47,725 nucleotides of DNA from a virus (lineage: Duplodnaviria > Heunggongvirae > Uroviricota > Caudoviricetes): the IMG/VR virus record IMGVR_UViG_2617270974_000008, positions 1 to 47,725 of that record; one strand, 5' to 3'. The translations under genes and the position numbers were made by a program. Shown in pieces: positions 2,815-43,526 of this stretch. Numbering within the stretch: the stretch's first letter is position 1; every line of letters starts with the position of its first letter. The notes beneath the pieces were generated by a model. That model ran no database searches. It was not told the origin of the DNA and saw only the letters and a list, made by a program, of their open reading frames with translations.

Positions 2815-5195
2815 TAGATTGACTCCCCCACCTGAGCATCAGTCAATGCCTTGTGCCATATTCTGAAATTCCTGACATGACCAAATAAATGACGTAACCC
2901 GGCTGTAGTCTGGCCTCCAATACGGATCATTGCGGTGTTCTGAATACAGGACCATGTGGTTTTTGTTTCGCTGGATATATGCCCGTTACTTACTGAGCAC
3001 GTAGACTGCTCTGACTTTACACGCATCCCCATAACCATTTTTTCAAGCGATGCGTTTTCGTTTACCCGTCTGTTAGCTCCTCCAATATCGCAATAAGGAA
3101 ATCCGTCGTAATCTGTTGAACGACCGAAGCCAAGAATAATAGCCGCTCCGGTTTGATGACCGCCGGTATCAAAAACACGTGGCGCTGCATTTGGCGTTTT
3201 ATACCAGTTCTTATGTACCTCACAAAGAACCGTAAAAGGAAGATTATAAAGATTATTCTTAATTGGAACTGTAACTATATCGCTTGCGCGGGTCGCCGCC
3301 GTCGCTCCTGATATAATAAAAGATGATACACAAGGCCCATCTTCTACTTGTGGGGTGGCCAGATAAATATAATCACCAGATACGGTTGCCCCGCTCTGCT
3401 TAGGAGAATACTGTATCTGAGAGCCTATTTTTAACTCCCCATCAATTGCCTGAATTGTTGCCTCTGCAAAAATCCATCCGGTAGCTTCGTCCTTTCTGAC
3501 TCTCGCTGTGATCCTTGAGGCAGCACCGCCTGTCATATTAATTTCAAGCGTTTGTGTATCAATATACGCATCACCAAGAAAAGTTGTTGCGCTACCGTCA
3601 TATTTATCAAACCGGATACGCAACCTTACCTGCAGTTCTGTTTTAAAACGACATGAGGTTGTCACGTGTTTATTATCGCCTGAGACATCAACTGACTTTG
3701 TTGCAGCAATTGATGCCATATTAATGGCTGAGGTTTGCCCAATCAGAGAATCGTTGCAGACAAACTTTCCATAGGTAAAACCAAAATTATCCGTCCCTGT
3801 TTCGGGCACATCCATATTTGACGATCGCCCCCAACTGGCAGGGCTTTCCGAATTGAGCATGTAGTTTGTTCTTTGCCCCTCAATAAGCAGGCCATCACGT
3901 TCAAATCGTGGCTCGTCAATGGCAGCCTCTGTCAGCACACCAGATTTGTTAATATAGGTTGCTTTCGATGCACGTTTAAACTTAACAATCTTGTCGCCAG
4001 GCATCGTTATTTCATCGTCACCAATAACAATTTTTTTATATGATGGCGAAAAGCCCGTAATCATATCCAGCGAATCGTTAAATGGTATCCACACATCAGG
4101 CAGCGGCTGTAAGACATATTTATACGGCTCCGCAGCCTGGCTTGCGTACTCTCTGGCTGCATCTTCGCTTGCTTTAGCTGCCGTCTGGCTTGCTGCCGAT
4201 GCTTTCGCTGAGTTCGCAGCCGCTGTTTCGCTCACCTTTGCGTTGGTTTCACTGGTTTTTGCTGCTTTTTGACTGTTAGCTGATGCAGTGGCAGAAGCAG
4301 CCGCCGCGCTTGCAGAACTGGCTGCGGCACTCTCGCTTTGGGCCGCTGCATCCTGACTGCTTTTCGCCGCAGTTTCACTGGCTTTGGCATTCGTTTCGCT
4401 GGTCTTCGCTGCCGTCTGGCTGGACTTTGCGTTAGTTTCACTCGTCTTCGCAGCTTTCTGGCTGTTAGCCGCAGCAGTTGCTGATCCAGCTGCTGAAGTC
4501 GCAGAACCGGCTGCCGCGCTCTCGCTTTGGGCTGCTGCAACCTGGCTGTTTTTTGCCGCAGTTTCACTGGCTTTAGCATTCGTTTCGCTGGTCTTCGCTG
4601 CCGTCTGGCTGGACTTTGTGTTGGTTTCGCTCGTCTTTGCGGCTGTCTCGCTATTTTTCGCGTTGGTTTCTGATTTTTTAGCTGCTGTTGCGGAGTTTGC
4701 CGATGCAGTCTGCGAGGCCGCTGCCGCCTGTGCGCTGTTAGCTGCATTTGTTTCTGAGGTTTTCGCCGCGTTCTTCGATGATGCCGCTGCAGTTTCGGAT
4801 TTCTTTGCCGCCGCTGCGCTCTGAGAGGCGGCTTCAGCGTTGCGTGCCGCTTCTTCCACCATTTCCTCAAAACGACGCAATGCCTCCGGCATGACATCAT
4901 CTTCCGTCATGGCACCGAGAAAATCATTCAGCGTACCTGGTCTGGAACCTTCATAGACGGTAATGATCCCGGCATGTGAAGGCGGAAAACCTTCAACCAG
5001 CAGGATAACGCTATACTGGCCATACTCAACGTCCATGCTGTAACGCCCGGCTTCATCCGGATTTTCAGAGGCCACCGTGTTCACCAGTACAGTGGTGCTG
5101 TTACGCTTTGCCTTCAGTTGAATAGTGCAGTTCTGTATTGGTTTTCCCGCACCATCTTTCAGCACACCTGAGATTTTTACTGCTGCCATATCCAC
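2814..5195 (-). CDS. stf: Side tail fibre protein (lambda Stf-like N-terminus, Ala/Ser/Thr repeat array, LamG-like C-terminus)
   Basis: 793 aa; N-terminal ~110 aa match recalled lambda Stf (AVKISGVLKDG...GRYSMDVEYGQYSV...); C-terminal ...HVRNFRIWHKALTDAQV resembles end of concanavalin-like/LamG jelly-roll domains. Confidence 0.85.
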   Translation of the reverse strand: MDMAAVKISGVLKDGAGKPIQNCTIQLKAKRNSTTVLVNTVASENPDEAGRYSMDVEYGQYSVILLVEGFPPSHAGIITVYEGSRPGTLNDFLGAMTEDDVMPEALRRFEEMVEEAARNAEAASQSAAAAKKSETAAASSKNAAKTSETNAANSAQAAAASQTASANSATAAKKSETNAKNSETAAKTSETNTKSSQTAAKTSETNAKASETAAKNSQVAAAQSESAAAGSATSAAGSATAAANSQKAAKTSETNAKSSQTAAKTSETNAKASETAAKSSQDAAAQSESAAASSASAAAASATASANSQKAAKTSETNAKVSETAAANSAKASAASQTAAKASEDAAREYASQAAEPYKYVLQPLPDVWIPFNDSLDMITGFSPSYKKIVIGDDEITMPGDKIVKFKRASKATYINKSGVLTEAAIDEPRFERDGLLIEGQRTNYMLNSESPASWGRSSNMDVPETGTDNFGFTYGKFVCNDSLIGQTSAINMASIAATKSVDVSGDNKHVTTSCRFKTELQVRLRIRFDKYDGSATTFLGDAYIDTQTLEINMTGGAASRITARVRKDEATGWIFAEATIQAIDGELKIGSQIQYSPKQSGATVSGDYIYLATPQVEDGPCVSSFIISGATAATRASDIVTVPIKNNLYNLPFTVLCEVHKNWYKTPNAAPRVFDTGGHQTGAAIILGFGRSTDYDGFPYCDIGGANRRVNENASLEKMVMGMRVKSEQSTCSVSNGHISSETKTTWSCIQNTAMIRIGGQTTAGLRHLFGHVRNFRIWHKALTDAQVGESI
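4240..4700 (-). repeat. Tandem coding repeat (about 192-bp period, roughly 2.3 copies) inside stf
   Basis: Near-identical DNA blocks (gcattcgtttcgctggtcttcgctgccgtctggctggacttt recurs about 192 bp apart); encodes repeated AAKTSETNAK... segments. Confidence 0.7.
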
Positions 5196-5253
5196 TCCAC
5201 AAAAAAGCCCCCCTGAACCGGCGGGCTGTCATAACACTGTGTTACCTGGCTAA

Positions 5254-5853
5254 TCAGAATTTATAACCGACACCCACGATGAAACCGTCAGTGCGCCAGT
5301 CGCCACTGCCGGAGCCTTCATAAGCAATATCAATGGCCACGGATTCGGTCGGGTTAAACTGCACGCCAGCTCCCCACGCCAGAGACGTGTTGCTGTGGCG
5401 ATCGTCATCACTTCCGGTCAGCACATCGTGCGTTTTCCCCTTGTTGTCAGTTACGCGGAGATAATCCCCGGAGAACGTCGAAACACGGCTGTAAGCCACA
5501 CCTGCCATCGCATAAGCACTGAACCATTCATTCACGCGTACAGATGGCCCCGCCATCATGCTGAACCAGCGGTTACGCACTGAATCTTCATGCCAGCGGG
5601 TATCGCTGTAATGCGTTTTTTGCTCATCTTTGGCATTGGCATAACTGAATGACGTCACCAGCCCCAGCGTGTCCGTAAATTCATAACGGTATTTCACGTT
5701 AATGCCCTTCAGGTCATCACTGCCTGGCATATCAGTATGGGTCTGAAGATACCCGACGCTTAGTGTGGACTGATGCTCTGCTGCGCTCGCTGGCGTACCA
5801 GCGGCAACCAGCCAGACTACTGCGGACAGAATAACAGCACATAATTTACGCAT
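5254..5853 (-). CDS. lom: Outer membrane protein Lom (Ail/Lom family)
   Basis: 199 aa; signal peptide; strong match to recalled lambda Lom incl. C-terminal ...FIVGVGYKF. Confidence 0.9.
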   Translation of the reverse strand: MRKLCAVILSAVVWLVAAGTPASAAEHQSTLSVGYLQTHTDMPGSDDLKGINVKYRYEFTDTLGLVTSFSYANAKDEQKTHYSDTRWHEDSVRNRWFSMMAGPSVRVNEWFSAYAMAGVAYSRVSTFSGDYLRVTDNKGKTHDVLTGSDDDRHSNTSLAWGAGVQFNPTESVAIDIAYEGSGSGDWRTDGFIVGVGYKF

Positions 5854-5920
5854 AATTACCTCTCGCTTTTCTGCAATAAAAAAGGCGCCATTTCTGGCGC
5901 CCGTATCTGGGTTATAAAAT

Positions 5921-8900
5921 TCAGCTAATCGTGATGCCTGCAGTGGCTTTCTTCATCACAACAACCAGCAAATCGCTGATACTTGCTGTGGGATACCAGC
6001 CATTTACCCACCATGCTGATACAGAAAACTCCAGTGTCATTACGCCACTGCCTGCAGGCATATCAATAACACCCGTGTAAATCAGAGTATTATCCAGAGC
6101 CGTTCGGTTATAAATTTCAGCCCCGTTTTTCTTCACTATCAGGCGGCATGACGAATAAGTATCGCTATTCTCCCGTTCATGTCTGGCACCGCTGAAAGCC
6201 ACCGCTGGAATAACAATTTGCCGGTCAAACGGCTGATCGTCATAAACCCTGACGGTAATGGTCCCTGATGGCCACCGCTCCGGTGCACGGGAGTCCCGGG
6301 GGAAAGCTTTGCCCACTGTTTTAACGAGATCGCCTTCAATCTGGTTCGCGGACAGTTTTCCCAGAACCCGACAGTTCTCGTTAATCGTGACGTTGTTGAG
6401 CGTCCCGGAGTTCGCATTCACGCTACCGCTGATATCGGCATTTTTCGCCGTCAGCCGCCCGTCCGGTGTCAGGGAAAATGCCGGAGGATTGCCGCCACTG
6501 GTAATGGTGGGAGCCGTCAGATACTTCAGGAACACTTCGTTCATGAATATCTGGTTGCCCTGCGCCACAAACATCGGCGTTTCATTCCCGTTTGCCGGGT
6601 CAATAAACGCGATACGGTTAGCAGCAACCAGGAACTGGCTCAGTTTGCCTTCCTCCGTATCCTCCATACTAAGGCCAAGCCCCGCGACATAATGCCTGCC
6701 GTCTTCGGTCTGCTCAATTTTGACGCCCCACATGGCATTCCATTTATCGTTGGCGTCCTTCCACTCTTTCGAAAACTCCTCCAGTTTGCTGGCGTTATCC
6801 TCCGTCAGCTCGACTTTTTCCAGCAGCTCCTTGCCGAGATGGGATTCAGTTATCTGGCCTTTGAAAAAATCCAGGTAACCTTCCGCATCATCGCTCGCCC
6901 GACCGACAGCCTCCACGAATGTCGATTTGCCGACGGTGTTCACACTGCGAACGTAAAAATAATAATCATGGCCCGGTTTGATATTGATACTGGCGGCTAT
7001 CCAGTACAGCGCCGTGCCAAGATAGCGGGCTGTGGTTTCAACCTGCCTGATATCCGCAATCCGCTTTTCCGAGAACCAGAACTCAAACTGTACAGTCGGA
7101 TCATAAACCGCAAGATGCGGCGTGGCGGTTATCTGAAAATAGCCCGGCGTCAGCTCAATCCGCGATGGCGCTGCCGGTGCGGCAATCCGGAACGATACCG
7201 ATGCCGGATCGCCCTGCTGCCCCCACGCATTTACCGCCCGGACTGTCAGACTGTAATTTCCCAGCGCCAGTTGCGTGAATCGGTATGTGGTTTCCGTCGT
7301 CCGGGCCGTGCTGACCAGCCGCTCACTGCCGTCATCCGCTGCCACGGTCAGGCGAAGCATAAAGCTCACGCCCTTCACCACCTTCGGCGTATCCCAGCGC
7401 GCCAGCACCTGGTATTCCCCGCTGTCTGCGGTGACTTCTGCGGTCAGGTGTTGCACTGCTGGCGGCGTGACACCATTCACCGTGCCGCTCTGGTCGCCGT
7501 CAAAGTACGCCCCGTTATCCACGATGGCCTCTTTTTCCGGTACATGCTGCACGGCGGTGATGGCATACGTGCCGTCGTCGTTCTCACGGATACTCACGCA
7601 GCGGAACAGGCGCTGGCGCAGCGTCGGCAGCTTCAGCCCCCACACGCTGTATTCAGCAACACCGTCAGGAACACGGCTCACTTTCACCTTCACGCCGTCG
7701 GTGACGGACTGGACCTCCACGCTGACCGGATTGCCACTTCCGTCAACTAGGCTTATCAGCGTGGTACCGGAGGATGGCAGCGTGATTTCACGGTCGAGCG
7801 TCAGCGTCCGGGTCTGGCTGTTCACCGCCAGCACACGACCACCGGTGCTGATACCGGCATAGTCATCATCGCAGATTTCAATAACATCACCCGGGACATG
7901 GCGAAGCCCTTCTGCGCCGACGCTGAAATCCACGGTCTGCGTTTCCAGCAGTTCTGTTTTAATCAGCCACAGCCCGGCGCGGTGTGCCTGCCCCCGGCTG
8001 GTACAGCCAAAAGCATCCATCTTCGTGACGTTACGACCGTAACGGGCAATGGCCTGCGTATCTTCAACAAGCTCTGTCGCCGTCTCCCAGCCGTTGTTCG
8101 GGTCAATCCAGTTCACCTCAACGGCATTATGGCGGTCCTTGAGGGCGCTGAAGCTGTAGCGGAACGGCGCGCCATCATCCGGCATCACCACATTACTGCG
8201 GTTATAGGTCCACACCTTATCCGACGGTCGGTCCTGCACGAACGTCAGCGTCTGCCCGTTCCATACCGGCATACAGCGCATCGCCGAGCAGAAATCACTG
8301 AGCACATCCCACGCCTTGCGCTGTGTGGTCAGGTAAGCGTTACAGGTGATGCGCGGCTCCGTGCCACCAAAACCGTCCGGCACCGACTGCTCGCAATGCT
8401 GGCCGATGACATACAGCGCCCATTTGTCCACATCCGCCGCACCAAGACGTTTCCCCATGCCGTAGCGCGGGTGGGTCAGCATATCCCACAGACACCAGGC
8501 CATGTTGTTGCTGTATGCTGGCTTAAACGTTCCGTCCCAGATACCGCTGTATTGCCGCGTCTGCGGGTTATAGTTCGACGGCACCTGCAGAATGCGCCCG
8601 CGAAGATGATAATTACGGCTCACCTGCTGGCTGCCGAACTGCTCCGAATCCACCTGCACGCCGACCAGTGCCGTGTTCGGGTAGCACTGTTTCACATCGA
8701 TGATTTCGGTGTATGACGACCAGAGCGTTTTGTTCTGCAGCTGGTCTGTGGTGCTGTCCGGTGTCATCCTGCGCATCCGGATATTGAACGGTCGCGGCGG
8801 CAGGTTATCCACCACCACCGAGACCAGATACTGCGACGTGGTTTTGCCCTTAATGGTGATGTCTTTTTCTGTCACCCAGCCACCGTTACGTTGTATCTGA

Positions 8901-25017: not shown

Positions 25018-25251
25018 ATGTCAACGAAGAACAAAACCCGCAGAACAACAACCCGCAACATCCGCTTTCCTAACCAAATGATTGAACAAATTAACATCGC
25101 TCTTGATCAAAAAGGGTCCGGGAATTTCTCAGCCTGGGTCATTGAAGCCTGCCGCCGGAGACTGTGCTCAGAAAAAAGAGTTTCTCCTGAAGCAAACAAA
25201 GAAAAGAGTGACATTACTGAATTGCTCAGAAAACAGGTCAGACCAGATTGA
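25018..25251 (+). CDS. Small basic protein, YnfO/YlcI-like moron
   Basis: 77-aa ORF opposite to late operon; same length/position as small genes between lysis module and cos in DLP12/Qin-type prophages (recalled). Confidence 0.45.
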   Translation: MSTKNKTRRTTTRNIRFPNQMIEQINIALDQKGSGNFSAWVIEACRRRLCSEKRVSPEANKEKSDITELLRKQVRPD

Positions 25252-25308
25252 AGCAATTTAGATAATCGTGCAGACTACGCCCCCTCATATCACATGGAAG
25301 GTTTATCT

Positions 25309-25719
25309 ATGGATCAGGTAGTCATTTTTAAACAAATATTTGATAAAGTTCGAAACGATTTAAACTATCAATGGTTTTATTCTGAGCTAAAACGTCACAA
25401 TGTCTCACATTACATTTACTATTTAGCCACAGAGAATGTTCATATTGTATTAAAAAATGATAATACAGTGTTATTAAAGGGCCTAAAAAACATTGTGTCT
25501 GTCAAATTTTCAAAGGATAGGCATCTTATAGAAACGACCTCTAATAAGCTGAAATCCAGAGAGATCACATTTCAGGAATACAGAAGAAACCTTGCTAAAG
25601 CAGGAGTTTTTCGGTGGGTTACAAATATCCACGAACAAAAAAGATATTACTATACCTTTGATAATTCATTACTCTTTACTGAAAACATACAGAGCACATC
25701 ACAAATGTTTCCACACTAA
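25309..25719 (+). CDS. DUF1398-like protein (YbcV/YdfO-like moron)
   Basis: ORF 25294..25719; start at ATG 25309 with GGAAGG SD gives 136 aa; family assignment from memory. Confidence 0.5.
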
Positions 25720-26021
25720 ACCATAACGTCCGGTTTCTTCTACCCCTGCACCGGACTGGCTGACATGAAGAGCAACCCCGCGTTCAGTTGACGCGTTAAT
25801 AACCCGGTGTGCATCGTTTTTGATTATTCCCGCACACTCACGCAGAAGGAATTCCCCGTCGGGCTACGGTCATGGTTAATGCGGGAATACGGCGACGATA
25901 CAGCGCATGATGTGTCAGGCTTGAATACCTTTATCCGTTAAAAGGGATATCAGTTAAGTTATCCCGTGCAGGGTATAAGCCATTATCAAGCCCCCCGTAG
26001 ATAGGCTTTGTAATGACATCT

Positions 26022-28578: not shown

Positions 28579-28794
28579 TTACTCTCCCCGTGCCGCCTTA
28601 CGACGGTCCTCTCTGATTTTGAAATACAGGTTAGTCAGATATGTCAGCAGCCCAAACAGCAGACTTCCCAGCACGCCTATTGCCGCCCACTGAGACGGGG
28701 AAACCCTGTCCAGCAACTGCAGGAACCAGTAGCCCGTTCCCACCGCTGACGTGGTGTATGACACACCTGTTGTGATTTTTTCCATCTGGTCCAT
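28579..28794 (-). CDS. S: Class II pinholin (S21-like) with dual-start motif
   Basis: ORF 28579..28899; start at [10 protein letters not shown]... gives 71 aa with two TM segments and basic C-terminus; Met1/Met4 dual start. Confidence 0.8.
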
Positions 28795-29101
28795 ACCCCG
28801 TCTCCCGTTATCCGGAAGCTGACAACAATAAAAAAGCCACCAGTTAACTACTGATGGCTCTGATAACTCATGCAAGCGTCTCAGACGACCCACTGACACT
28901 ACCGGTGAGTTTAACGATACCTTCCATTTGACTGGCTCACTTTTTATGATGATGCCGGTGCATTTATCTCCAGCGCCAGACTTTCTATCTCAACGCCATA
29001 CGTTGCATTTTTGGTAATATCCGTCAGCGTCAGTGCATTTAGTCCCACTGCCAGACTGTCTTTTATGGCCTGGAATGCCGGGCCAGTACGATGACGTAGT
29101 A

Positions 29102-29290
29102 TCACTCCGGCTCAGTTGCACCACTGACCACCACATCACCTTCTGCTGCAATCGCCTGCATCAGGGTATAAGGGGTTATGGCCACCGGACTACCAAACGG
29201 CTGCCAGCCCTCTTTCAGTTTATGTGTTAGCTTTTCCGCAAGATCTGACGGCGGCGCCGCCCTGACAACATCATAGTGTTTAAATGCCAT
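29102..29290 (-). CDS. Small hypothetical protein (DUF1737-like) upstream of holin
   Basis: ORF 29102..29302; ATG at 29290 (MAFKHYDVV...); family from memory. Confidence 0.45.
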   Translation of the reverse strand: MAFKHYDVVRAAPPSDLAEKLTHKLKEGWQPFGSPVAITPYTLMQAIAAEGDVVVSGATEPE

Positions 29291-29550
29291 GGTTCTTTCC
29301 ACTATCTGAAAAATAATTCTTTAAAATACCTGACATGTAATACAGAAAAAACACAAAACTATACCTTAAATAAAAACCTGATTATCAAGCAGATATGCAT
29401 GGATAAACTACAAGACGAGATATAAACCACCCTGCATTTAAATAAACAATAAACAACATCAGAAAAATAATTCTGCTCTATGGTTTACATTCAAAAATAT
29501 CATTTATACTTTTCAGGACATCACCAGCAAGGCATAAACAAGGAAACCAA

Positions 29551-29886
29551 ATGAAGTGGATTGTGATTGATACAGTTATCCAGCCATCATGCGGAATATC
29601 TTTTTCAGTCATATGGAGTAAAATAAAATTAATAATCTGGTATCAATCGGATGCTTTCTTACCTCCTGAAAGTATATTTACACTGACTCACACAGGCATC
29701 ATGCTCAATAACAAAGTGCTACCTGTAACCATTTACAACGTAGTACCATTCAATAAAACATTCTGGAATTTAATCAAAAACAGCCAGGAATGCCCTACAA
29801 ATACAGATAACGTATTGAATGAATGCTTTAATAACCGTTGCACTCTGCAAATATGTCCTTATGGACTAAAACAACAAAGTCCATAA
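29551..29886 (+). CDS. Hypothetical protein in AT-rich moron patch
   Basis: 111 aa; AGGA SD before ATG; Cys-containing; no family recognised. Confidence 0.4.
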
Positions 29887-29905
29887 GGAGTTTACTCACA
29901 TCTGA

Positions 29906-29940
29906 CAAAATCAATATAAACAGCCCCTCCGGAGAGGGGC
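29906..29940 (-). terminator. Hairpin terminator (GC stem plus T-run on minus strand)
   Basis: gcccctc-cgga-gaggggc stem; minus strand followed by tttatattgatttt. Confidence 0.45.
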
Positions 29941-30333
29941 TGGAGAGTGGCGCTATGTGCCATTGCATGGTGCCGGGTGCCTCCCGGTGAATTCAGTACC
30001 AGCACCTGAATCCGCGATTATCCCATATACCTACTCGCTGATTGCCCCTCCGCACAGGGGGATTCACCATGCCAGTTTCTTTTAACAAACTCCCCGCAAA
30101 CCAGACAACAGTCAACCGCCTGAATTGTGAAGTATTTAAAAATTTCTCCCGCTAACTGATACCCGGCGAACAGTCTGGCGTTTTCTTTTTCAGCAACGGA
30201 AAAGCAACAACCACCACACCTGCCACCAGCACACCGTCAGCCAGCACTGACATTATCCGGCTGCTGCAATGCCATTCACAAAAACAGTAAGCAATCACTT
30301 TTTACCGTAACAGGTGATAATCCAGATATGTAT

Positions 30334-30687
30334 CTACCCCAGATGAGTAATCCGAAGTTCATCCATACCACAGGTCCTGGCTATTCTGTTGTACTCCTGA
30401 ACAAGAGCAAATAATTCTGAATTAGCAACCATGAACTCATCGCTAACCCTCTGTATAGCATCACTATTCAGAATAATAACGTCTCTTCCCGAAAGACGAT
30501 CAGGAGTACAAAACAAAACTGTCAAACGGCTGAAGGCCTTTGCTCGTGCTGCATTGACTATATCAATACGCTGCCTAAGGATGAAACACCCCGACGCCTC
30601 ATCAATATTCACTCTACCCACACCATATGAATGATAAATATTTAATGCTGAAAAAACCATTAGACCGTATAACAAACACTCAATCAA
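30334..30687 (-). CDS. Hypothetical protein in AT-rich moron patch (uncertain)
   Basis: 117-aa ORF; non-ATG start at ORF top, internal ATG lacks clear SD. Confidence 0.3.
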   Translation of the reverse strand: MIECLLYGLMVFSALNIYHSYGVGRVNIDEASGCFILRQRIDIVNAARAKAFSRLTVLFCTPDRLSGRDVIILNSDAIQRVSDEFMVANSELFALVQEYNRIARTCGMDELRITHLG

Positions 30688-30797
30688 TACTTAACAGAAC
30701 TTTTATTTTTGACAAACATATAATATTTTCAACAATATCCTGAGCCAGGTATATTCCAGTATAAGGCTCTGCCGGAAGGAATCTGGAAGAATGAATA

Positions 30798-30874
30798 TGG
30801 CGCGTTGTACTGGATTCGAACCACTGACCGATTGCTTAGAAGGCAATTGCTCTGTCCTGCTGAGCTAACAACGC
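30798..30874 (-). tRNA. tRNA-Arg (anticodon UCU)
   Basis: 77-nt cloverleaf folded by eye: 7-bp acceptor, anticodon stem ATTGC/GCAAT with loop CTTCTAA, T-loop TTCGAAT, 3' CCA. Confidence 0.85.
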
Positions 30875-30887
30875 AGAATACCGATAA

Positions 30888-30964
30888 TGGACCACCATCG
30901 GGGACCCGAACTCCGCGCAACCAGCTTCGAAAGCTGGCGCTCTTTCCTGATGAGCTAATGGCGG
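30888..30964 (-). tRNA. tRNA-Arg (anticodon UCG as read)
   Basis: 77-nt cloverleaf: anticodon stem CCAGC/GCTGG, loop TTTCGAA, acceptor with one G-U pair, CCA end. Confidence 0.75.
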
Positions 30965-30971
30965 TATGTGA

Positions 30972-31047
30972 TGGTGGCCCTTGCTGGATTTGAACCAGCG
31001 ACCTGGCGATTATGAGTCGCTCGCTCTCACCACTGAGCTAAAGGGCC
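30972..31047 (-). tRNA. tRNA with CAU anticodon (Met or lysidine-type Ile2)
   Basis: 76-nt cloverleaf: acceptor GGCCCTT/AAGGGCC, anticodon loop CTCATAA, T-loop TTCAAAT, CCA end. Confidence 0.85.
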
Positions 31048-31085
31048 GGGAGCAGAATAATAACGGTCCGTAATTAATTCCGCAA

Positions 31086-31108
31086 TAAAAAACCCGCTCG
31101 GCGGCGGG
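31086..31108 (-). terminator. Intrinsic terminator downstream of late promoter (tR'-like)
   Basis: Minus strand cccgc-cgccga-gcggg hairpin followed by ttttttatt. Confidence 0.55.
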
Positions 31109-31157
31109 TTGTAGAAACTCTTCTAACGTCAGGCATAAAAAGCCCATCGTTATGACG

Positions 31158-31185
31158 AATTTACCACAGATTCCGGAAAAATCAA
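31158..31185 (-). promoter_or_regulatory. Candidate late promoter PR' just downstream of Q
   Basis: Minus strand TTGATT-16 nt-TAAATT starting about 6 nt after Q stop. Confidence 0.45.
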
Positions 31186-31190
31186 CCTTG

Positions 31191-32012
31191 TTACCTAGTT
31201 ACCTTTTTTAACTGCCGCTCAGCCCATGCTTCTTCAATATCAAACCGGGTCACCAGCGCATCATAGAATTTCTTAACTGTTTTTTCCCATGACGCGCGTG
31301 TTATCTGGTTTGTCACCTCGCATATAGCATTAAATACCTCCGTTGATGGTAGTCTTTCATAGCCACGACCACCACAACGCTGGCAGTCTCTGATAACAGG
31401 CATACCACGTTTTACCGACTCTTCACGGTGAATGGCGACACCACGCCCACGGCAATCCTTACAGGCGGTGGAAACCTCACCCTTTCCGCCACACTCCGGA
31501 CAGGCAACTTTTACCACCTCCCTGACTTTTTTCCATTCTTCCCAGTAAGACGGATACACACCTTTCGTACACTTTGCCCATACCGGCGGCTTACCATCCG
31601 GATACTGGACCTTGTTTGTAAAAACTACGCTTTCAATAAATTTTTCCCCATAGCAACAAGGGCACTGCTTTTTACTCGCTGCGCTGCGGGCATAATCCTC
31701 AAAAGCGTACGAAGCCATAATGCGCATCACTACCGGTTTTATTTCTGCCGGAAGTTTTCTCAACGCCGCCACACGATCGCACCGACTGAGTGCATAATCT
31801 GCCAGTAATTCTGTTGCCCGCGCCCTGTCATTCATACTGATGCCCATTTTCCCCAGGAACGCAGAAAAACCCATCTCAGCCCGATTCTGTGTCATGCCCT
31901 GCGCGGCCATCACATCAGTGATACTCAGCGCATCTTTTGACGTTGAGGCCGATGCATCGGTCAGGCCAGGGGATTTTGGGGAGTAGTATTTCGGTAAATC
32001 TTCCAGTTTCAT
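31191..32012 (-). CDS. Q: Late-gene antitermination protein Q (non-lambda Q family with zinc-binding CxxC motifs)
   Basis: 273 aa; several CxxC pairs (CPCCYGEK, CPECGGKGE, CQRCGGRG); immediately upstream of promoter/terminator and tRNAs. Confidence 0.8.
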   Translation of the reverse strand: MKLEDLPKYYSPKSPGLTDASASTSKDALSITDVMAAQGMTQNRAEMGFSAFLGKMGISMNDRARATELLADYALSRCDRVAALRKLPAEIKPVVMRIMASYAFEDYARSAASKKQCPCCYGEKFIESVVFTNKVQYPDGKPPVWAKCTKGVYPSYWEEWKKVREVVKVACPECGGKGEVSTACKDCRGRGVAIHREESVKRGMPVIRDCQRCGGRGYERLPSTEVFNAICEVTNQITRASWEKTVKKFYDALVTRFDIEEAWAERQLKKVTR

Positions 32013-34938: not shown

Positions 34939-37042
34939 TATTTCCCAACTTCAACTGTTCTGCCTCATCCAAGAATTCTTGGTGAGTTTGAGTTGTCCTC
35001 AGCAAGAACCCTGCCCAATCAACGGGTGTTAGGCGTTTTTCTTCGATGTATGCAGTATAAGCTTTACGACGTGCCCCACTCAAGCGCTCCCCATCACTTA
35101 CCAGCGTAACGTGAAAATCAGATGCTATTGATTTAAAATCATTATGTCTCTCATCGTTCAAAAACTCCTCGAATGTTTCGAAGTAATTAATAATACGATC
35201 CATTTCATCATTGGAAATATAATGATGTGGCTTTTTTATTTCAATTATTTGTAATTTTCCATCCTGACTAAACAATACAAAGTCTGGTCTTTTATTTTTT
35301 TTATCAAAATCTATAAGAAATATCTCCTCACCAGTTTTCTTTTTATAAAATTTTTGAAATTCCCTTTTAAGCGTGGACAACGTTTTATTTGCTGTAACTG
35401 GGACCCATTGAGGGTTAACTAGCCACGGAGCGGATGCAATTAGATCTTGTAACTCATCTTCTGCTGTATCCTTTGCGTCTTTTAAAGACTCGAGACGCTC
35501 AATAATCTGAAGACGCTTTTTGACCTTTTGACCAAAACTAACGGTTTCAGCTAGTTGAGCCGTTGCTAAAATATCGTTGAGAACATTGAGCGGTGTATCC
35601 GCTTTACTGGAAGCTTCTATTAACTTCTCATCTAAGGATTGTAATGGTGCTAACATAATACTTAACTGCACTAAATTCTCGAGTGCATCAGGATCATGTA
35701 ATTCATCACCTCGTAAAGATTTACCCAACAACTTGGCTATTTTTTTAGCCTGTGCTCGCATATCCTTTTGACCGGCTCCAGGGTATGCTTGCTCGACCTT
35801 ATCCTCCACTTGCGCTAATTCGAAGAATTGATTCATCATATTATTTCTAAGGGGGTCGCGAGTTATTTTACCCACAAGTAAAATAACTTCTTGCCCCCAA
35901 TTCTGAAATTGCGTTCCTAAATCATCAGACCATAGAATATCCCTTCTATCAGTTTGGATAAGATCTTCTTTTTCGTCTAACCAGTCAGCATGCAACTCAC
36001 CTACCAAATATGAACGTATAGAGTGCTCTCCAGTAAAACCAGCTTTTCTATTAAAAACTGCTGTTTGCGCAGCAAACTTACCTCGGCAATAAATTCTAAC
36101 ACCTGCCATTAACTCGTCCTTATAAGGCTCTTTCGCGTATGCAATCCAACCTAATATCGGGTAAGCTTTCCCTTCATGTTCAAAACCGGCCTTAACAATT
36201 GATGAACGCGTGCCGTCAGGATTAAAAGCCGTATAATCACTTAAATCCGTACAAGAATCTGTCGCAATACTTCCACTCATGGAACGAAATTCAATTTTAG
36301 AGTTAGGCATAACAGGAACAGTAAACTCTCCGACCTCAACTTCATAGTCAGGATTAGACTTTGTTTTCGAAGTATCAATCAGTTTAATATTCCAGTTTTT
36401 ACTCTTCACTCCAAAACGTTGTGAAAGCTGCCGAGATAAATCTTTTATTTCGCTAATTTTTCTATATTCAAAATCACTTAATATTATTTTAGTATAGGTC
36501 CTGTCACTTAGTGTGCCGTCTAAATCCCCAGTTTCCGGTTTATAAGACACTGCAGTATCATCCATTATTTTTTCTTTATCTAGCTGAATATGAGCAACCT
36601 CATACCCTTCCTTTCCATCACGACTGATTTTTTCCCCACCGGCACTTATAATCTCGACCCTTTTACAAACACCAAAAGGTGCTAATTTCCCAACGCCTTT
36701 CCGTCCCATGACTTTGCGGTGAAACACCTTCGAGGTTTCACCTCTTTTTGGATCCTTACGTCTTTCTTTGCCAACAACCAAATAAAAGTTCTGTAGTTCA
36801 TCAGGCGCCATTCCGACGCCATTATCTTCTACTTCTATTGTGACATTTTTTGACCTGACAACACCATCCTGTCTAACAGCCAAGTATTGGCCCATAGGTG
36901 CTTTTATAGTGACATTAGTCGCATCTGCATCGTAACTGTTAGATACTAATTCGGCTATAACAGCATAAGCCCTGTCATATAATTTCACACCTAATTTATC
37001 TACTGTCATCCTTGATATCTGCATTTCATATTGACGCGCCAT
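34931..37042 (-). CDS. GHKL (Bergerat-fold) ATPase fused to C-terminal PD-(D/E)xK-like nuclease motif
   Basis: 703 aa; N-box ELVSNSYDADAT, G1 DNGVGM, G2 GRKGVGKL; C-terminal ...RPDFVLFSQDGKLQIIEIKK (PD...E-x-K); AT-rich codon usage; SD AGGA before ATG. Confidence 0.8.
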   Translation of the reverse strand: MARQYEMQISRMTVDKLGVKLYDRAYAVIAELVSNSYDADATNVTIKAPMGQYLAVRQDGVVRSKNVTIEVEDNGVGMAPDELQNFYLVVGKERRKDPKRGETSKVFHRKVMGRKGVGKLAPFGVCKRVEIISAGGEKISRDGKEGYEVAHIQLDKEKIMDDTAVSYKPETGDLDGTLSDRTYTKIILSDFEYRKISEIKDLSRQLSQRFGVKSKNWNIKLIDTSKTKSNPDYEVEVGEFTVPVMPNSKIEFRSMSGSIATDSCTDLSDYTAFNPDGTRSSIVKAGFEHEGKAYPILGWIAYAKEPYKDELMAGVRIYCRGKFAAQTAVFNRKAGFTGEHSIRSYLVGELHADWLDEKEDLIQTDRRDILWSDDLGTQFQNWGQEVILLVGKITRDPLRNNMMNQFFELAQVEDKVEQAYPGAGQKDMRAQAKKIAKLLGKSLRGDELHDPDALENLVQLSIMLAPLQSLDEKLIEASSKADTPLNVLNDILATAQLAETVSFGQKVKKRLQIIERLESLKDAKDTAEDELQDLIASAPWLVNPQWVPVTANKTLSTLKREFQKFYKKKTGEEIFLIDFDKKNKRPDFVLFSQDGKLQIIEIKKPHHYISNDEMDRIINYFETFEEFLNDERHNDFKSIASDFHVTLVSDGERLSGARRKAYTAYIEEKRLTPVDWAGFLLRTTQTHQEFLDEAEQLKLGNNE

Positions 37043-37618
37043 TTAAATATCCTTCTAAAAGAGTATTTTTTGCTCAAAAAGGGGAAGTTTATGTTTGACT
37101 AACATAGCAAAAAAACTTTCATCTTCAAGAGGTTCACACCAAAAGAATTTACCTGGTTCACATAACCAGCTGGATTAGTGTTGAGTTTTGGGTAAACCTG
37201 AGGATTGAGAAACCAGTACTGATAAATGGGTATCCGCTGTTTTCGTCCCTCTCCTGAGCTACCGTGTATTGAAATGGCATCGACACTATTACATGGTAGG
37301 AGGTTGTATGTATGGTTTAGATATTTTGCATCTTTCACAGACACTTTTTACCTTTGCCATATCCTTCCACATTGTTTCTCCGGAAATCACTAACGGTTTG
37401 GCATTTGCAGAACCATTATCAGCCATAGCTTCTTGCCGTTAACTTCGGTTGCACCTGATTGTTGCTCACCTTCAGGCAATGATGGGTTATATACACGGAC
37501 TGAGCTCACTGCAGTAACAACCTTCCCAGTCAACTTACCTATGCTTTCAACCATCATCGTAGCGGCATACTTCCGAATTGCTATTATTTCAATTCTGCAC
37601 CGTTTGCTCAATGTAACG

Positions 37619-42390: not shown

Positions 42391-42711
42391 ATGGAATTTA
42401 AAGATTTACCAGTACCATTCCAGGAAATGGCATCGAATGTGGTTCGCTCTCAACTGGCGACTCTTGACCTGAGTACCGTAGAAAAAGAAACCATCGACAA
42501 TATATCCGGTAACGTACGCCGAGCCTTTATCGGGCTGTACGAAGAGAAGCAGCTCTCTGATAACCAGGATTTACATGAAAAATACTTCCTGGATCTAATG
42601 GACATCATTGATAAGGGGTTTGGCTTGTTAATGAAAAAGAAAGGGATTCGAATAGAACCCCTTGAAAATTACTTTGCAACAAAAAGCATTAATTCTTTTG
42701 ATTCAAAATAA
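42391..42711 (+). CDS. Hypothetical early protein
   Basis: ORF 42379..42711; start at MEFKDLPVPF with GAGG SD; AT-rich. Confidence 0.45.
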   Translation: MEFKDLPVPFQEMASNVVRSQLATLDLSTVEKETIDNISGNVRRAFIGLYEEKQLSDNQDLHEKYFLDLMDIIDKGFGLLMKKKGIRIEPLENYFATKSINSFDSK

Positions 42712-42964
42712 GAGAATTAATTACAGACTTAACATGCTCTTTCTCATGATTGAAGCTCTCATGATTGAAAGTGCCGGGTTGAAGCGAGTCGATATAATCA
42801 ACAAGACTCTGTCGTACGACTTCATTTTTATCCATAACAGATGCAAGAAATGAAATTGCTAAAAGAGTTATATCACTACGCGCCGCAGCATGTTGCAATG
42901 CTTTATCAAAATTATTAATCTGGCGTATCAGGGAGTTAATGATTTCATCATTTTCAGTCGACAT
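42689..42964 (-). CDS. Hypothetical protein, convergent to early-left genes
   Basis: ORF 42689..43177; ATG 42964 (MSTENDEIINSL...) with AGGAGG SD; AT-rich; 3' end overlaps plus-strand gene. Confidence 0.45.
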   Translation of the reverse strand: MSTENDEIINSLIRQINNFDKALQHAAARSDITLLAISFLASVMDKNEVVRQSLVDYIDSLQPGTFNHESFNHEKEHVKSVINSLILNQKN

Positions 42965-43526
42965 TTCACCCTCCTGAGGGTTGGTGATTAAGGAGTTCTC
43001 CACGGGTGAGGTGGAGTGCGTGCGCCGGACACGGGTGAGCATCCGGCACTGACAGTTTACTGAAAGGATATTTCCCTGAAAAGTCAGACCATAACGCGAA
43101 AGCGCACGGCGAGGTAGCTGGTTCATAGATAGCCTGTCGTTAAATTTTCGTCGACCGTGCGCTTCCGGTTGTGGCAATCCGCGAAATGGCGCGGCGGTAA
43201 GTATGGCGGGGTTATTCCTTCCCCCGTTGAGGACACCGGGTTGTCAGGTTGACCATACGCTTAAGTGACAACCCCGCTGCAACGCCCTCTGTTATCAATT
43301 TTCTGGTGACGTTTGGCGGTATCAGTTTTACTCCGTGACTGCTCTGCCGCCCTTTTTAAAGTGAATTTTGTGATGTGGTGAATGCGGCTGAGCGCACACG
43401 GAACAGTTAAAACCAAAAACAGTGTTATGGGTGGATTCTCTGTATCCGGCGTTAATTGTTAACTGGTTAACGTCACCTGGAGGCACCAGGCACCGCATCA
43501 CAAAACTCATTGTTGAGGGCGCGATA

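Follow-up and report, generated by a model that had tools for sequence, protein, structure and literature searches.

Accessory cargo at the Shiga-toxin position of a lambda-like Escherichia coli prophage: iraL, an STnc100-family small RNA and a conserved 92-aa gene

Introduction

Morons are accessory cassettes inserted in the late operon of lambdoid phages (Juhala et al. 2000 as cited in PMC4104026), and the region downstream of the late promoter pR' is one such moron site (Tree et al. 2014). In Stx2 toxin loci, including those of Stx2_EH2246 and Sakai Sp5, this site follows the order Q, a tRNA trio, the cargo, STnc100, an ira gene in some cases, nanS-p and holin. In the Stx2a phage Stx2_EH2246, the corresponding genes are tRNA-Met/Arg/Arg, stx2A and stx2B, followed by STnc100, an oppositely oriented ira gene, nanS-p and holin. 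The STnc100 family overlaps in part with EcOnc27/sRNA103, an Hfq-binding sRNA encoded downstream of stx2B (PMC12711010, PMC7873438, PMC4104026) and detected as a discrete Hfq-associated RNA in uninduced EHEC lysogens (PMC7873438, PMC4104026).

[quoted passage not shown] 2014, PMC4045071). The IraL-RssB interaction was shown, both the level and the half-life of RpoS were lower in an iraL deletion mutant, the transcription start was determined in lysogens growing in log phase, and the gene was found in many UPEC and Shigella isolates (PMC4045071). Expression of iraL rises at 37 °C and when fur is mutated. Here we describe a prophage that carries iraL together with an STnc100-family sRNA at this site.

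Results and discussion

Layout and composition of the patch

We analysed a stretch of 47,725 bp (the window) corresponding to positions 1 to 47,725 of the IMG/VR virus record IMGVR_UViG_2617270974_000008. The late operon of this phage lies on the minus strand and, along the direction of late transcription, we found the Q gene, a promoter-terminator unit, three tRNAs, a gene of ~92 aa, a DUF3927 gene, STnc100, a 111-aa ORF on the plus strand, two nanS-p remnants and the holin. According to an earlier note, an accessory patch separates the phage tRNAs from the holin and occupies the position where Stx phages carry their toxin genes. Both statements hold, Stx2_EH2246 having the same gene order: the patch is accessory (moron) cargo of a lambda-like E. 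coli prophage, located where Shiga-toxin phages keep their toxin genes. The three ORFs that had been named (29551-29886 on the plus strand with its AGGA, 30334-30687 on the minus strand, and the DUF1737 ORF at 29102-29302 on the minus strand) do exist, and neither matches to phage housekeeping genes nor a uniform GC content, either of which would have spoken against accessory cargo, were found. The features are the following:

31191-32012: Q antiterminator gene (PF03589, E 8.5e-55)
31091-31185, minus: putative late promoter pR' and tR' terminator, immediately downstream of the Q gene
31185-31158, minus: putative pR', TTGATT (31185-31180), 16-nt spacer and TGgTAAATT (hexamer 31163-31158), read from the sequence and placed by position only
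31110-31091, minus: tR' terminator (terminator scan)
30798-31047, minus: three phage tRNAs (ARAGORN, Rfam tRNA matches, PGAP)
30613-30797, minus: AT-rich spacer from the last tRNA to the 92-aa gene (GC 0.319)
30334-30687, minus: 117-aa mechanical ORF with TTG start (ORF list)
30334-30612, minus: conserved gene of ~92 aa, phrog_2873 (GTG at 30612; PHROG E 3.8e-69; GC 0.437)
30152-30298, minus: small DUF3927 gene encoding 48 aa from a GTG start (PF13064, 95 bits, cutoff 25; GC 0.503)
29912-30101, minus: STnc100-family sRNA, RF02076 (Rfam 132.4 bits, gathering score 47; GC 0.553)
29551-29886, plus: iraL, 111 aa (GC 0.345), convergent with STnc100 and reading against the late operon
29484-29550, plus: iraL promoter and leader (5'-RACE match; hexamers read from the sequence)
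29484-29489, plus: iraL -35, TTTACA
29505-29512, plus: iraL -10-like, TATACT/TACTTT
29518, plus: iraL transcription start, A (published 5'-RACE)
29541-29544, plus: iraL Shine-Dalgarno AGGA, 6 nt before the ATG
29303-29483, no strand: very AT-rich spacer from the nanS-p start codon to the iraL promoter, part of the ira cassette
28944-29302, minus: remnants of nanS-p, a 9-O-acetyl-sialic-acid esterase gene (phrog_143 positions 1-58 and 582-632 of 634)
29102-29302, minus: DUF1737 ORF, 66 aa (Pfam DUF1737, E 4e-17)
29105-28944, minus: 53-aa ORF, matching the C-terminal ~30-50 residues of nanS-p
28579-28794, minus: holin (ORF list and annotation)

To evaluate the AT-richness that had been attributed to the whole patch, we measured GC content per segment and in 300-bp windows (whole window 0.506; s.d. 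of the 300-bp windows 0.072). The bias is real over 29100-30700 (GC 0.413 versus 0.506) but patchy, since it resides in two sub-blocks only, namely the iraL cassette (29303-29911, GC 0.322), where all the DNA ahead of the iraL ATG (29303-29550) drops to 0.286, and the spacer after the tRNAs. A GC content of 0.36 or less is reached by just 3.2% of the 300-bp windows. Comparable AT-rich islands occur at four other places in the window.

Several observations fit the usual description of a moron. The composition of the iraL cassette is unlike that of the phage backbone (0.322 versus 0.506 for the window), and the genes present at this same site vary among phi296, Stx2_EH2246, mEp460 and 640R1: phi296 is devoid of both cassettes, going directly from the tRNAs to STnc100 and nanS-p, Stx2_EH2246 carries stx2AB in place of the minus-strand cassette, and mEp460 and 640R1 each have only one half in common with our patch. 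In a three-way alignment, the ira cassette stands out as inserted sequence with respect to phi296. We consider these blocks to be cassettes because phi296 lacks both, because composition changes sharply between blocks, and because mosaic breakpoints with other phages coincide with STnc100; at the edges of the iraL cassette, a search for insertion scars or flanking repeats retrieved only short repeats at chance level. As for flanking signals, iraL has a mapped promoter and no recognisable terminator, and the minus-strand cassette has a terminator and no promoter above chance. Overall, the terminator scan yielded 7 terminator-like sites in 28800-31300 versus 2.0 ± 1.4 in shuffled sequences, and the promoter scan 6 promoter-like sites versus 5.3 expected from shuffles. 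Among 5,426 E. coli genomes that are complete, 863 contain 80% or more of the patch.

The Q gene, the putative pR'-tR' unit and the tRNAs

The assignment of pR' is based on position and the candidate sequence scores below the threshold of our promoter scan, so that we refer to it as putative throughout. The short RNA that would be produced between pR' and tR' was considered as a candidate StxS-like RNA, in which case it would be a second RpoS activator; it showed only weak Rfam matches, to isrK and the Trp leader. The comparable StxS unit of Stx phages is 258 nt long and belongs to a different Q system. Q is a 273-aa PF03589 protein here and a 126-aa protein in the Stx2a phage L007. A further sRNA, HnrS, is essentially limited to EHEC/EPEC (PMC13502914).

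The tRNA trio consists of a tRNA with CAT anticodon, Arg-TCG and Arg-TCT, the first one being called Met by ARAGORN and, for an identical gene, tRNA-Ile by PGAP. In Stx phages the same trio occupies this position, lying upstream of stx2A in L007. Codons 1-25 of the mechanical 117-aa ORF fall within the spacer that follows, and their dN/dS of 0.86 indicates neutral evolution. The spacer also contains a candidate promoter (TTGAAA-16-AAAAAT, 30732-30705) that may serve the downstream cassette.

A conserved 92-aa gene at the stx position

The remaining part of the 117-aa ORF corresponds to a gene of ~92 aa located at the position of stx. Its distant homologues, 91-95 aa in length, begin at profile position 26, and homologues are always found downstream of Q-type antiterminators; an alternative start at ATG 30660 would give 108 aa. 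Compared with a 55%-identical homologue, the gene exhibits a dN/dS of 0.29, versus ~1 in the other frames, which indicates that it is under purifying selection. PGAP shows no feature at this place in the RefSeq genomes of CFT073 and SCU-105.

The protein is predicted to fold as an antiparallel two-helix hairpin (AlphaFold2 pLDDT 85.5). A HMMER search against 1.84 billion representatives retrieved just 21 clusters, none named beyond 'hypothetical protein', and searches in Pfam, NCBIfam and PADLOC gave no match, nor was any informative homologue or fold match obtained. We also considered the nucleoid protein family GapR/UPF0335, but its weak match (E 0.023) was judged to reflect coiled-coil noise and did not support membership.

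A DUF3927 gene and an STnc100-family sRNA

The earlier note had seen about 400 bp without a confident ORF at 29940-30330, adding that a small RNA might be encoded there. The second part turned out to be correct, Rfam detecting STnc100 in this interval, and the first did not, as the interval holds STnc100 and the small DUF3927 ORF. The DUF3927 peptide, which contains a hydrophobic helix, also matches phrog_1470 (E 1.1e-12; PHROG label 'TciB-like'). Its start and length vary between annotations, PGAP giving 33-43 aa, and a literature search for DUF3927/TciB retrieved nothing relevant.

The STnc100 match covers the full-length model (positions 1-206 of 206). The GC hairpin recognised by the earlier note is the 3' end of this RNA: located at 29942-29921 on the minus strand, it has 9 pairs, 7 of them G-C, followed by the T-rich TTTATATTGATTTT, as expected for a terminator. 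Compensatory changes on both sides affect 8 of the 34 predicted pairs (10 copies from 6 loci), the fold of the single sequence has a z-score of -2.26, and a variable segment separates conserved stems. The strand opposite to STnc100 is sometimes mis-annotated as encoding a protein fragment. The anti-sRNAs AsxR and AgvB (RF02703/RF02702) were considered as candidates for the slot convergent with STnc100 and rejected, with no Rfam match at E ≤ 1 or at the gathering score. Likewise, a slot motif conserved in phi296 and L006, which is presumed to be an anti-sRNA, is absent from the window at up to 3 mismatches.

The plus-strand gene is iraL

The 111-aa ORF had been considered of unknown function. 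It is, in fact, identical over its whole length (111/111 residues) to the IraL protein of CFT073 (WP_000871291.1), the characterised RssB anti-adaptor (PMC4045071). It also matches NCBIfam NF007393 with 162 bits (cutoff 121) over residues 1-110 of 111 and shows 62% identity with the K-12 protein IraM. The published 32-nt 5'-RACE sequence (PMC4045071) occurs once in the window, without any mismatch, at 29518-29549. Judging from this exact match of the start sequence, iraL appears to possess its own sigma-70-type promoter, active in lysogens, and would thus be lysogen-expressed cargo that does not depend on induction. We regard its RpoS-stabilising role here as established through its sequence identity to the CFT073 gene. 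The biology of IraL was already known; what our analysis does is to set iraL on the phage map, in the moron site.

A deleted nanS-p gene

The small DUF1737-like gene mentioned in the earlier note is no gene of its own. It aligns with residues 1-62 of the 631-aa NanS-p of L007 with 90% identity, and the 53-aa ORF with residues 596-626 of the same protein with 52% identity (BLASTP). Compared with intact NanS-p, ~530 residues including the esterase domain are absent, and the two end pieces are correctly placed and oriented. The combination of DUF1737 and a SASA-type esterase domain in a protein of ~630 aa, which characterises NanS-p, was therefore not found, and PGAP classes the DUF1737 piece as a C-terminally truncated pseudogene. 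On this comparison, it is the N-terminal stump of a deleted nanS-p.

Expression and possible functions of the cargo

Taken together, the patch very likely represents a late-operon moron site in a lambdoid prophage, with a Stx2-like layout and different cargo, in which two cassettes converge on one terminator. The first cassette, on the minus strand and in the direction of late transcription, comprises the 92-aa helical-hairpin gene, the DUF3927 membrane peptide gene and STnc100, whose terminator closes it. In the lysogen, transcripts starting within or upstream of this cassette probably end at the STnc100 terminator; upon induction, Q-modified polymerase coming from pR' probably passes it, as for stx2. 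The second cassette, on the plus strand, consists of iraL with its own sigma-70-type promoter. By binding RssB, IraL would prevent RpoS from being handed to ClpXP, and the RpoS level would be higher in growing lysogens. The STnc100 terminator might shield iraL from convergent transcription during lysogeny, and antiterminated late transcription might run antisense through iraL after induction.

A bolder and doubtful extension of this scheme is that the prophage ties the stability of host RpoS to its own state via the convergent geometry and, separately, that the 92-aa protein is a so far undescribed factor that is made late and targets a host protein. Under that extension, protection of iraL by the terminator would allow IraL to hold RpoS high in the lysogen, and collision together with antisense RNA would switch IraL off upon induction as the lysis genes start. 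Mutual control might also exist, as the iraL mRNA could run antisense into STnc100 because the terminator scan detected no plus-strand intrinsic terminator 3' of iraL.

An alternative to two separately controlled cassettes is that all the cargo, including iraL, is transcribed only upon Q antitermination of pR', like stx2. The 92-aa gene, the DUF3927 gene and STnc100 do share the late-operon direction just downstream of pR'/tR' and the tRNAs, the promoter scan found no promoter above chance for this cassette or for STnc100 itself, and the rare codons that the neighbouring tRNAs decode are frequent in the 92-aa gene (9.8 per 100 versus a background of 2.8). However, this is unlikely for the patch as a whole. 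STnc100-type sRNAs are bound by Hfq in uninduced EHEC lysogens, and iraL is off-limits to pR' because it lies on the opposite strand. The earlier note had stated that cargo here is expressed on induction, which is wrong for iraL: this gene is antisense to the late operon, has its own promoter, and its start was mapped in uninduced log-phase lysogens, the corresponding sequence being present at 29518. Induction-only expression may apply to the 92-aa and DUF3927 genes alone.

Regarding the functional state of the patch, the reduction of nanS-p to two stumps, the two pseudogenes flagged here by PGAP together with its lack of a call for the 117-aa ORF, and the inconsistent start and length of DUF3927 between annotations could evoke a decaying remnant of a toxin/esterase locus with mostly non-functional ORFs. 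We consider this extremely improbable given that IraL is experimentally active (as the identical CFT073 protein), that purifying selection acts on the 92-aa gene, that the STnc100 structure is kept via compensatory changes, and that many of the 863 genomes match the patch at 95-99.9% identity. The 111-aa protein might also act as K-12 IraM does, namely in a PhoPQ-dependent manner induced by magnesium starvation; RefSeq in fact names the product 'IraM', in agreement with its match to the NCBIfam IraM subfamily model and its similarity to the K-12 protein. Nonetheless, in CFT073 the identical protein is made from a different promoter region and works in log phase without stress, the iraL and iraM coding regions are 67% identical (PMC4045071), and CFT073 IraL is reported to contact RssB differently from IraM, making an IraM-like role very improbable.

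Comparison with known systems

The two-cassette moron site that we favour does not overturn current understanding; its practical use is for annotation and for a small number of regulatory ideas that can be tested. It brings to attention a conserved, selected 92-aa gene that RefSeq leaves uncalled. It also locates iraL, known to regulate the RpoS stress response and to be associated with pathotype, in a slot that adjoins the toxin position of Stx2 phages. This placement in a moron site explains the spread of iraL and links it to the ira-like genes, mostly unannotated, found beside stx2 in Stx2a and Stx2c phages.

With the CFT073 iraL locus, our prophage shares an identical protein, promoter/leader and mapped start as well as the same flanking genes. 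The differences are an IS200C between Q and the tRNAs in CFT073, absent from the window, and the chromosomal location: in the closest genome, SCU-105, the prophage lies beside tRNA-Ser/mtfA, and the CFT073 copy is on the potB island (PMC4045071). K-12 IraM (YcgW) belongs to the same family, NF007393, and both are AT-rich genes, acquired horizontally and located in prophage-derived DNA; however, the K-12 locus has no STnc100, and IraM is induced by stress, IraL being active in log phase.

The sRNA has the stems and terminator of the STnc100 family, which overlaps EcOnc27/sRNA103, and likewise sits at the 3' end of the cargo, and published STEC qPCR primers match the window sequence. The segment between stems 1 and 2 is unlike that of the Stx-phage copies and, therefore, any targets may differ. 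In contrast with the AsxR/AgvB arrangement (Tree et al. 2014), the slot convergent with STnc100 is occupied here by a protein gene, iraL, read towards the same terminator.

Finally, in comparison with Stx2 toxin loci, the order of genes is the same and the cargo is not: neither stxA nor stxB was found, the ORFs between the tRNAs and STnc100 being phrog_2873 and DUF3927, with only their position in common with the toxin genes. In L007, stx2AB occupies the place taken here by the 92-aa and DUF3927 genes, and nanS-p, deleted here, is intact in the Stx2 phage.

Organization and base composition of the late region

All late genes of the prophage are on the minus strand of the window. The stretch between its tRNAs and holin, which the earlier note had described as an AT-rich moron patch at the position where Stx phages carry toxin genes, is correctly described as such. 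In the Stx2a phage Stx2_EH2246 the same order is found, namely tRNA Met/Arg/Arg, stx2A, stx2B, STnc100, an ira gene on the opposite strand, nanS-p and holin. The elements named from the sequence (111-aa, 117-aa and DUF1737 ORFs and the hairpin) were all recovered.

Main features of the late region
32012-31191, minus: Q antiterminator (PF03589, E 8.5e-55)
31047-30798, minus: three tRNAs
30687-30334, minus: 117-aa ORF
29942-29921, minus: G+C-rich hairpin with T-rich tail
29551-29886, plus: 111-aa ORF (iraL), AGGA at 29541-29544
29302-29102, minus: DUF1737 ORF, 66 aa
28794-28579, minus: holin
27886-27353, minus: lysozyme

Calculated GC content confirmed that the AT-richness is genuine but restricted it to two blocks, 29303-29911 (GC 0.322) and 30613-30797 (0.319), against a window mean of 0.506 (sd 0.072 among 300-bp windows); the ~700 bp separating them have ordinary composition. 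Further AT-rich islands of similar depth occur at 25151-25750, 35001-35550, 36151-37350 and 42451-43000, with the minimum (0.287) at ~35100. The first overlaps ydfO (DUF1398)/ynfO genes, and another DUF1398 gene, ycgX, also adjoins iraM in K-12. The early region encodes the DicF sRNA (RF00039, 76.7 bits; 43301-43352, plus), adjoined in a matching annotated genome by dicB/ydfABC-type genes. Q is separated from the tRNAs by a short unit (31087-31190, minus; putative late promoter pR' to its terminator tR') that gave weak, sub-threshold Rfam matches to isrK, an Hfq-binding RNA, and to a Trp leader.

The plus-strand ORF encodes IraL

The 111-aa ORF, previously considered of unknown function, matched the NCBIfam model NF007393 'anti-adapter protein IraM' (162 bits, cutoff 121). 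It is 62% identical to K-12 IraM and identical at 111 of 111 residues to CFT073 WP_000871291.1, whose gene was named iraL by Hryckowian et al. 2014 (PMC4045071). In that study, iraL deletion in log-phase CFT073 lowered the RpoS level and halved RpoS half-life, IraL bound RssB in a different manner from IraM, iraL was over-represented in UPEC, prostatitis and Shigella isolates, and its transcription start was mapped by 5' RACE. The published 32-nt start sequence has a single exact match in the window, at 29518-29549, and ahead of it we read a -35 TTTACA (29484-29489) and a -10-like TATACT/TACTTT (29505-29512). Later work reported increased iraL both in a fur mutant and on shifting cells to 37 C. 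Given the identity with the CFT073 protein, the published work and the mapped start, the ORF is, at the sequence level, IraL, a known, functional and lysogen-expressed gene. Since iraL is antisense to the late operon, pR' cannot express it, and the proposal that cargo here is expressed on induction does not hold for this gene. A terminator scan found no plus-strand terminator after iraL.

A degraded nanS-p gene

The small DUF1737-like gene proposed earlier is not a gene of its own but the 5' end of nanS-p: the 66-aa ORF corresponds to positions 1-58 of phrog_143, a profile of 634 positions, and PGAP flags it as a truncated pseudogene. The following 53-aa ORF (29105-28944) matches positions 582-632 of that profile. 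Compared with the intact 631-aa NanS-p of the Stx2a phage, they align with residues 1-62 (90% identity) and 596-626 (52%), respectively. By these alignments the two ORFs are both ends of a nanS-p esterase gene whose middle has been lost.

An unannotated gene downstream of the tRNAs

The 117-aa ORF lacks RefSeq annotation in CFT073 and SCU-105; it matches phrog_2873 (E 3.8e-69) and has a 55%-identical homologue in STEC prophages. Against this homologue, dN/dS (Nei-Gojobori) was 0.29 over codons 26-117 and 0.86 over the first 25 codons, with 0.93 and 1.15 in two control frames. We take the region to be a real gene despite the missing RefSeq call. An exhaustive HMMER search retrieved 21 clusters, the distant full-length members of which have 91-95 aa and start at profile position 26; the sequence at the codon-26 start region, GTGAATATTGATGAG, is the same in both lineages. 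The dN/dS split, the length of these relatives and the shared start region make a 92-aa product from GTG 30612 likely, although a start at ATG 30660, yielding 108 aa, might be used instead. For the favoured 92-aa protein, AlphaFold2 predicted a hairpin of two antiparallel helices whose TPDR loop is conserved (pLDDT 85.5), and fold and profile searches returned only generic coiled-coil matches. A Q-type antiterminator is always found upstream of its homologues. Our best guess, tentative at most, is that the late transcript gives rise to a small oligomeric protein-binding factor.

ATA, AGA, AGG and CGA codons amount to 9.8 per 100 in the 92-aa gene versus 2.8 in the long ORFs of the window. The same set reaches 5.4 per 100 in iraL, all ATA, against the same background. 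The tRNAs at 30798-31047, which both genes adjoin, read exactly these four codons. In the STEC1585 prophage (locus L006), the homologue (5977-6257), likewise missed by PGAP, follows a regulator gene of the AraC family (HTH_18; 5164-5889), at a distance of ~20 nt if the mechanical 116-aa ORF is taken and up to ~90 nt if it starts at the conserved GTG.

STnc100 as a small RNA and possible cassette boundary

The ~400 bp thought to lack a confident ORF, which the earlier note had suggested checking for a small RNA at 29940-30330, contain a full-length STnc100 (RF02076; 30101-29912, minus; 132.4 bits, Rfam gathering score 47), whose 3' stem-loop is the hairpin listed among the features. They also hold a small DUF3927 ORF upstream of it (30298-30152, minus; 95 bits; PHROG label 'TciB-like'). 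Across an alignment of ten STnc100 copies from six loci, the closing helix, three internal hairpins and terminator are kept, with both-sided changes at 8 of 34 pairs, and the variable part is the stretch joining the first hairpin to the second. According to the literature, an STnc100-type sRNA is located directly 3' of stx2B, and there is overlap between STnc100 and EcOnc27/sRNA103, an sRNA that binds Hfq. 'Hypothetical protein' CDS or pseudogene features annotated opposite STnc100 (window 29957-30085, plus; 2961-3173 in the phage 640R1 region; e.g., CFT073 C_RS30115) appear to be annotation errors at the sRNA locus.

Homology with phage mEp460_ev081 covers the tRNA-to-STnc100 half and stops at 29964, within STnc100; that with the 640R1 group covers the STnc100-to-nanS half and begins at 30130, just upstream of it. 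Judging from these breakpoints, STnc100 behaves as a shared linker where cassettes are exchanged, and it may act as a recombination linker. Phage phi296 has the tRNAs, STnc100 and nanS-p, in that order, and neither cassette. Late regions can carry multiple copies punctuating their cargo: in the STEC1585 prophage, four copies (4575-4787, 6547-6742, 6806-7005 and 7067-7256; three in tandem) punctuate tolA-like, AraC-like and phrog_2873 cargo, and the 640R1 region has two (2561-2754 and 3030-3218).

A model for expression

Published work shows, directly or through protein identity, that growing lysogens produce IraL from a promoter of its own and that IraL, through its block on RssB, stabilises RpoS. 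The minus-strand cassette (92-aa gene, DUF3927 ORF and STnc100) would, like stx2, be transcribed from pR' once Q antiterminates. Polymerase arriving from upstream in the lysogen would halt at the STnc100 terminator, shielding iraL, and after induction read-through would produce antisense transcription over it. In a promoter scan for STnc100 and the 92-aa gene, promoter-like sites were no commoner than in shuffled sequences.

Distribution and comparison with known systems

Among 5,426 complete E. coli genomes, 863 contain at least 80% of 29100-30800, and many of the top matches, CFT073 included, reach 99.9% identity. In the closest genome the patch belongs to an intact-looking lambdoid prophage adjoining tRNA-Ser/mtfA. 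In CFT073, Q is parted from the tRNAs by an inserted IS200C transposase with an STnc490 RNA element (3150-3608 of its locus); the window has no such insertion, and hence does not derive from CFT073 itself.

The main content, IraL and STnc100, has already been described. Modestly new are the precise location of iraL, which fills the convergent-sRNA slot; the 92-aa gene, unannotated yet under selection; the nanS-p deletion; and, next to stx2 in Stx2a and Stx2c phages, an apparent third ira lineage. The Stx2_EH2246 protein shares 73% identity with IraL and 65% with K-12 IraM, so this gene appears to represent a third lineage among genes of the RssB anti-adaptor type. It lies at 5253-5576 (minus) of the Stx2_EH2246 locus; such genes occur in 41 phage records, including Stx2a- and Stx2c-converting phages such as 2851 and 1717, where they occupy this same slot, and are unannotated in most.

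Rfam and conserved-motif searches detected no AsxR/AgvB-like sequence in the window. Convergent sRNA pairs occupy the moron site in eight Sakai prophages (Tree et al. 2014); in Sp5 the anti-sRNA AsxR fills the slot that converges on STnc100, and in the window this slot is taken by iraL.
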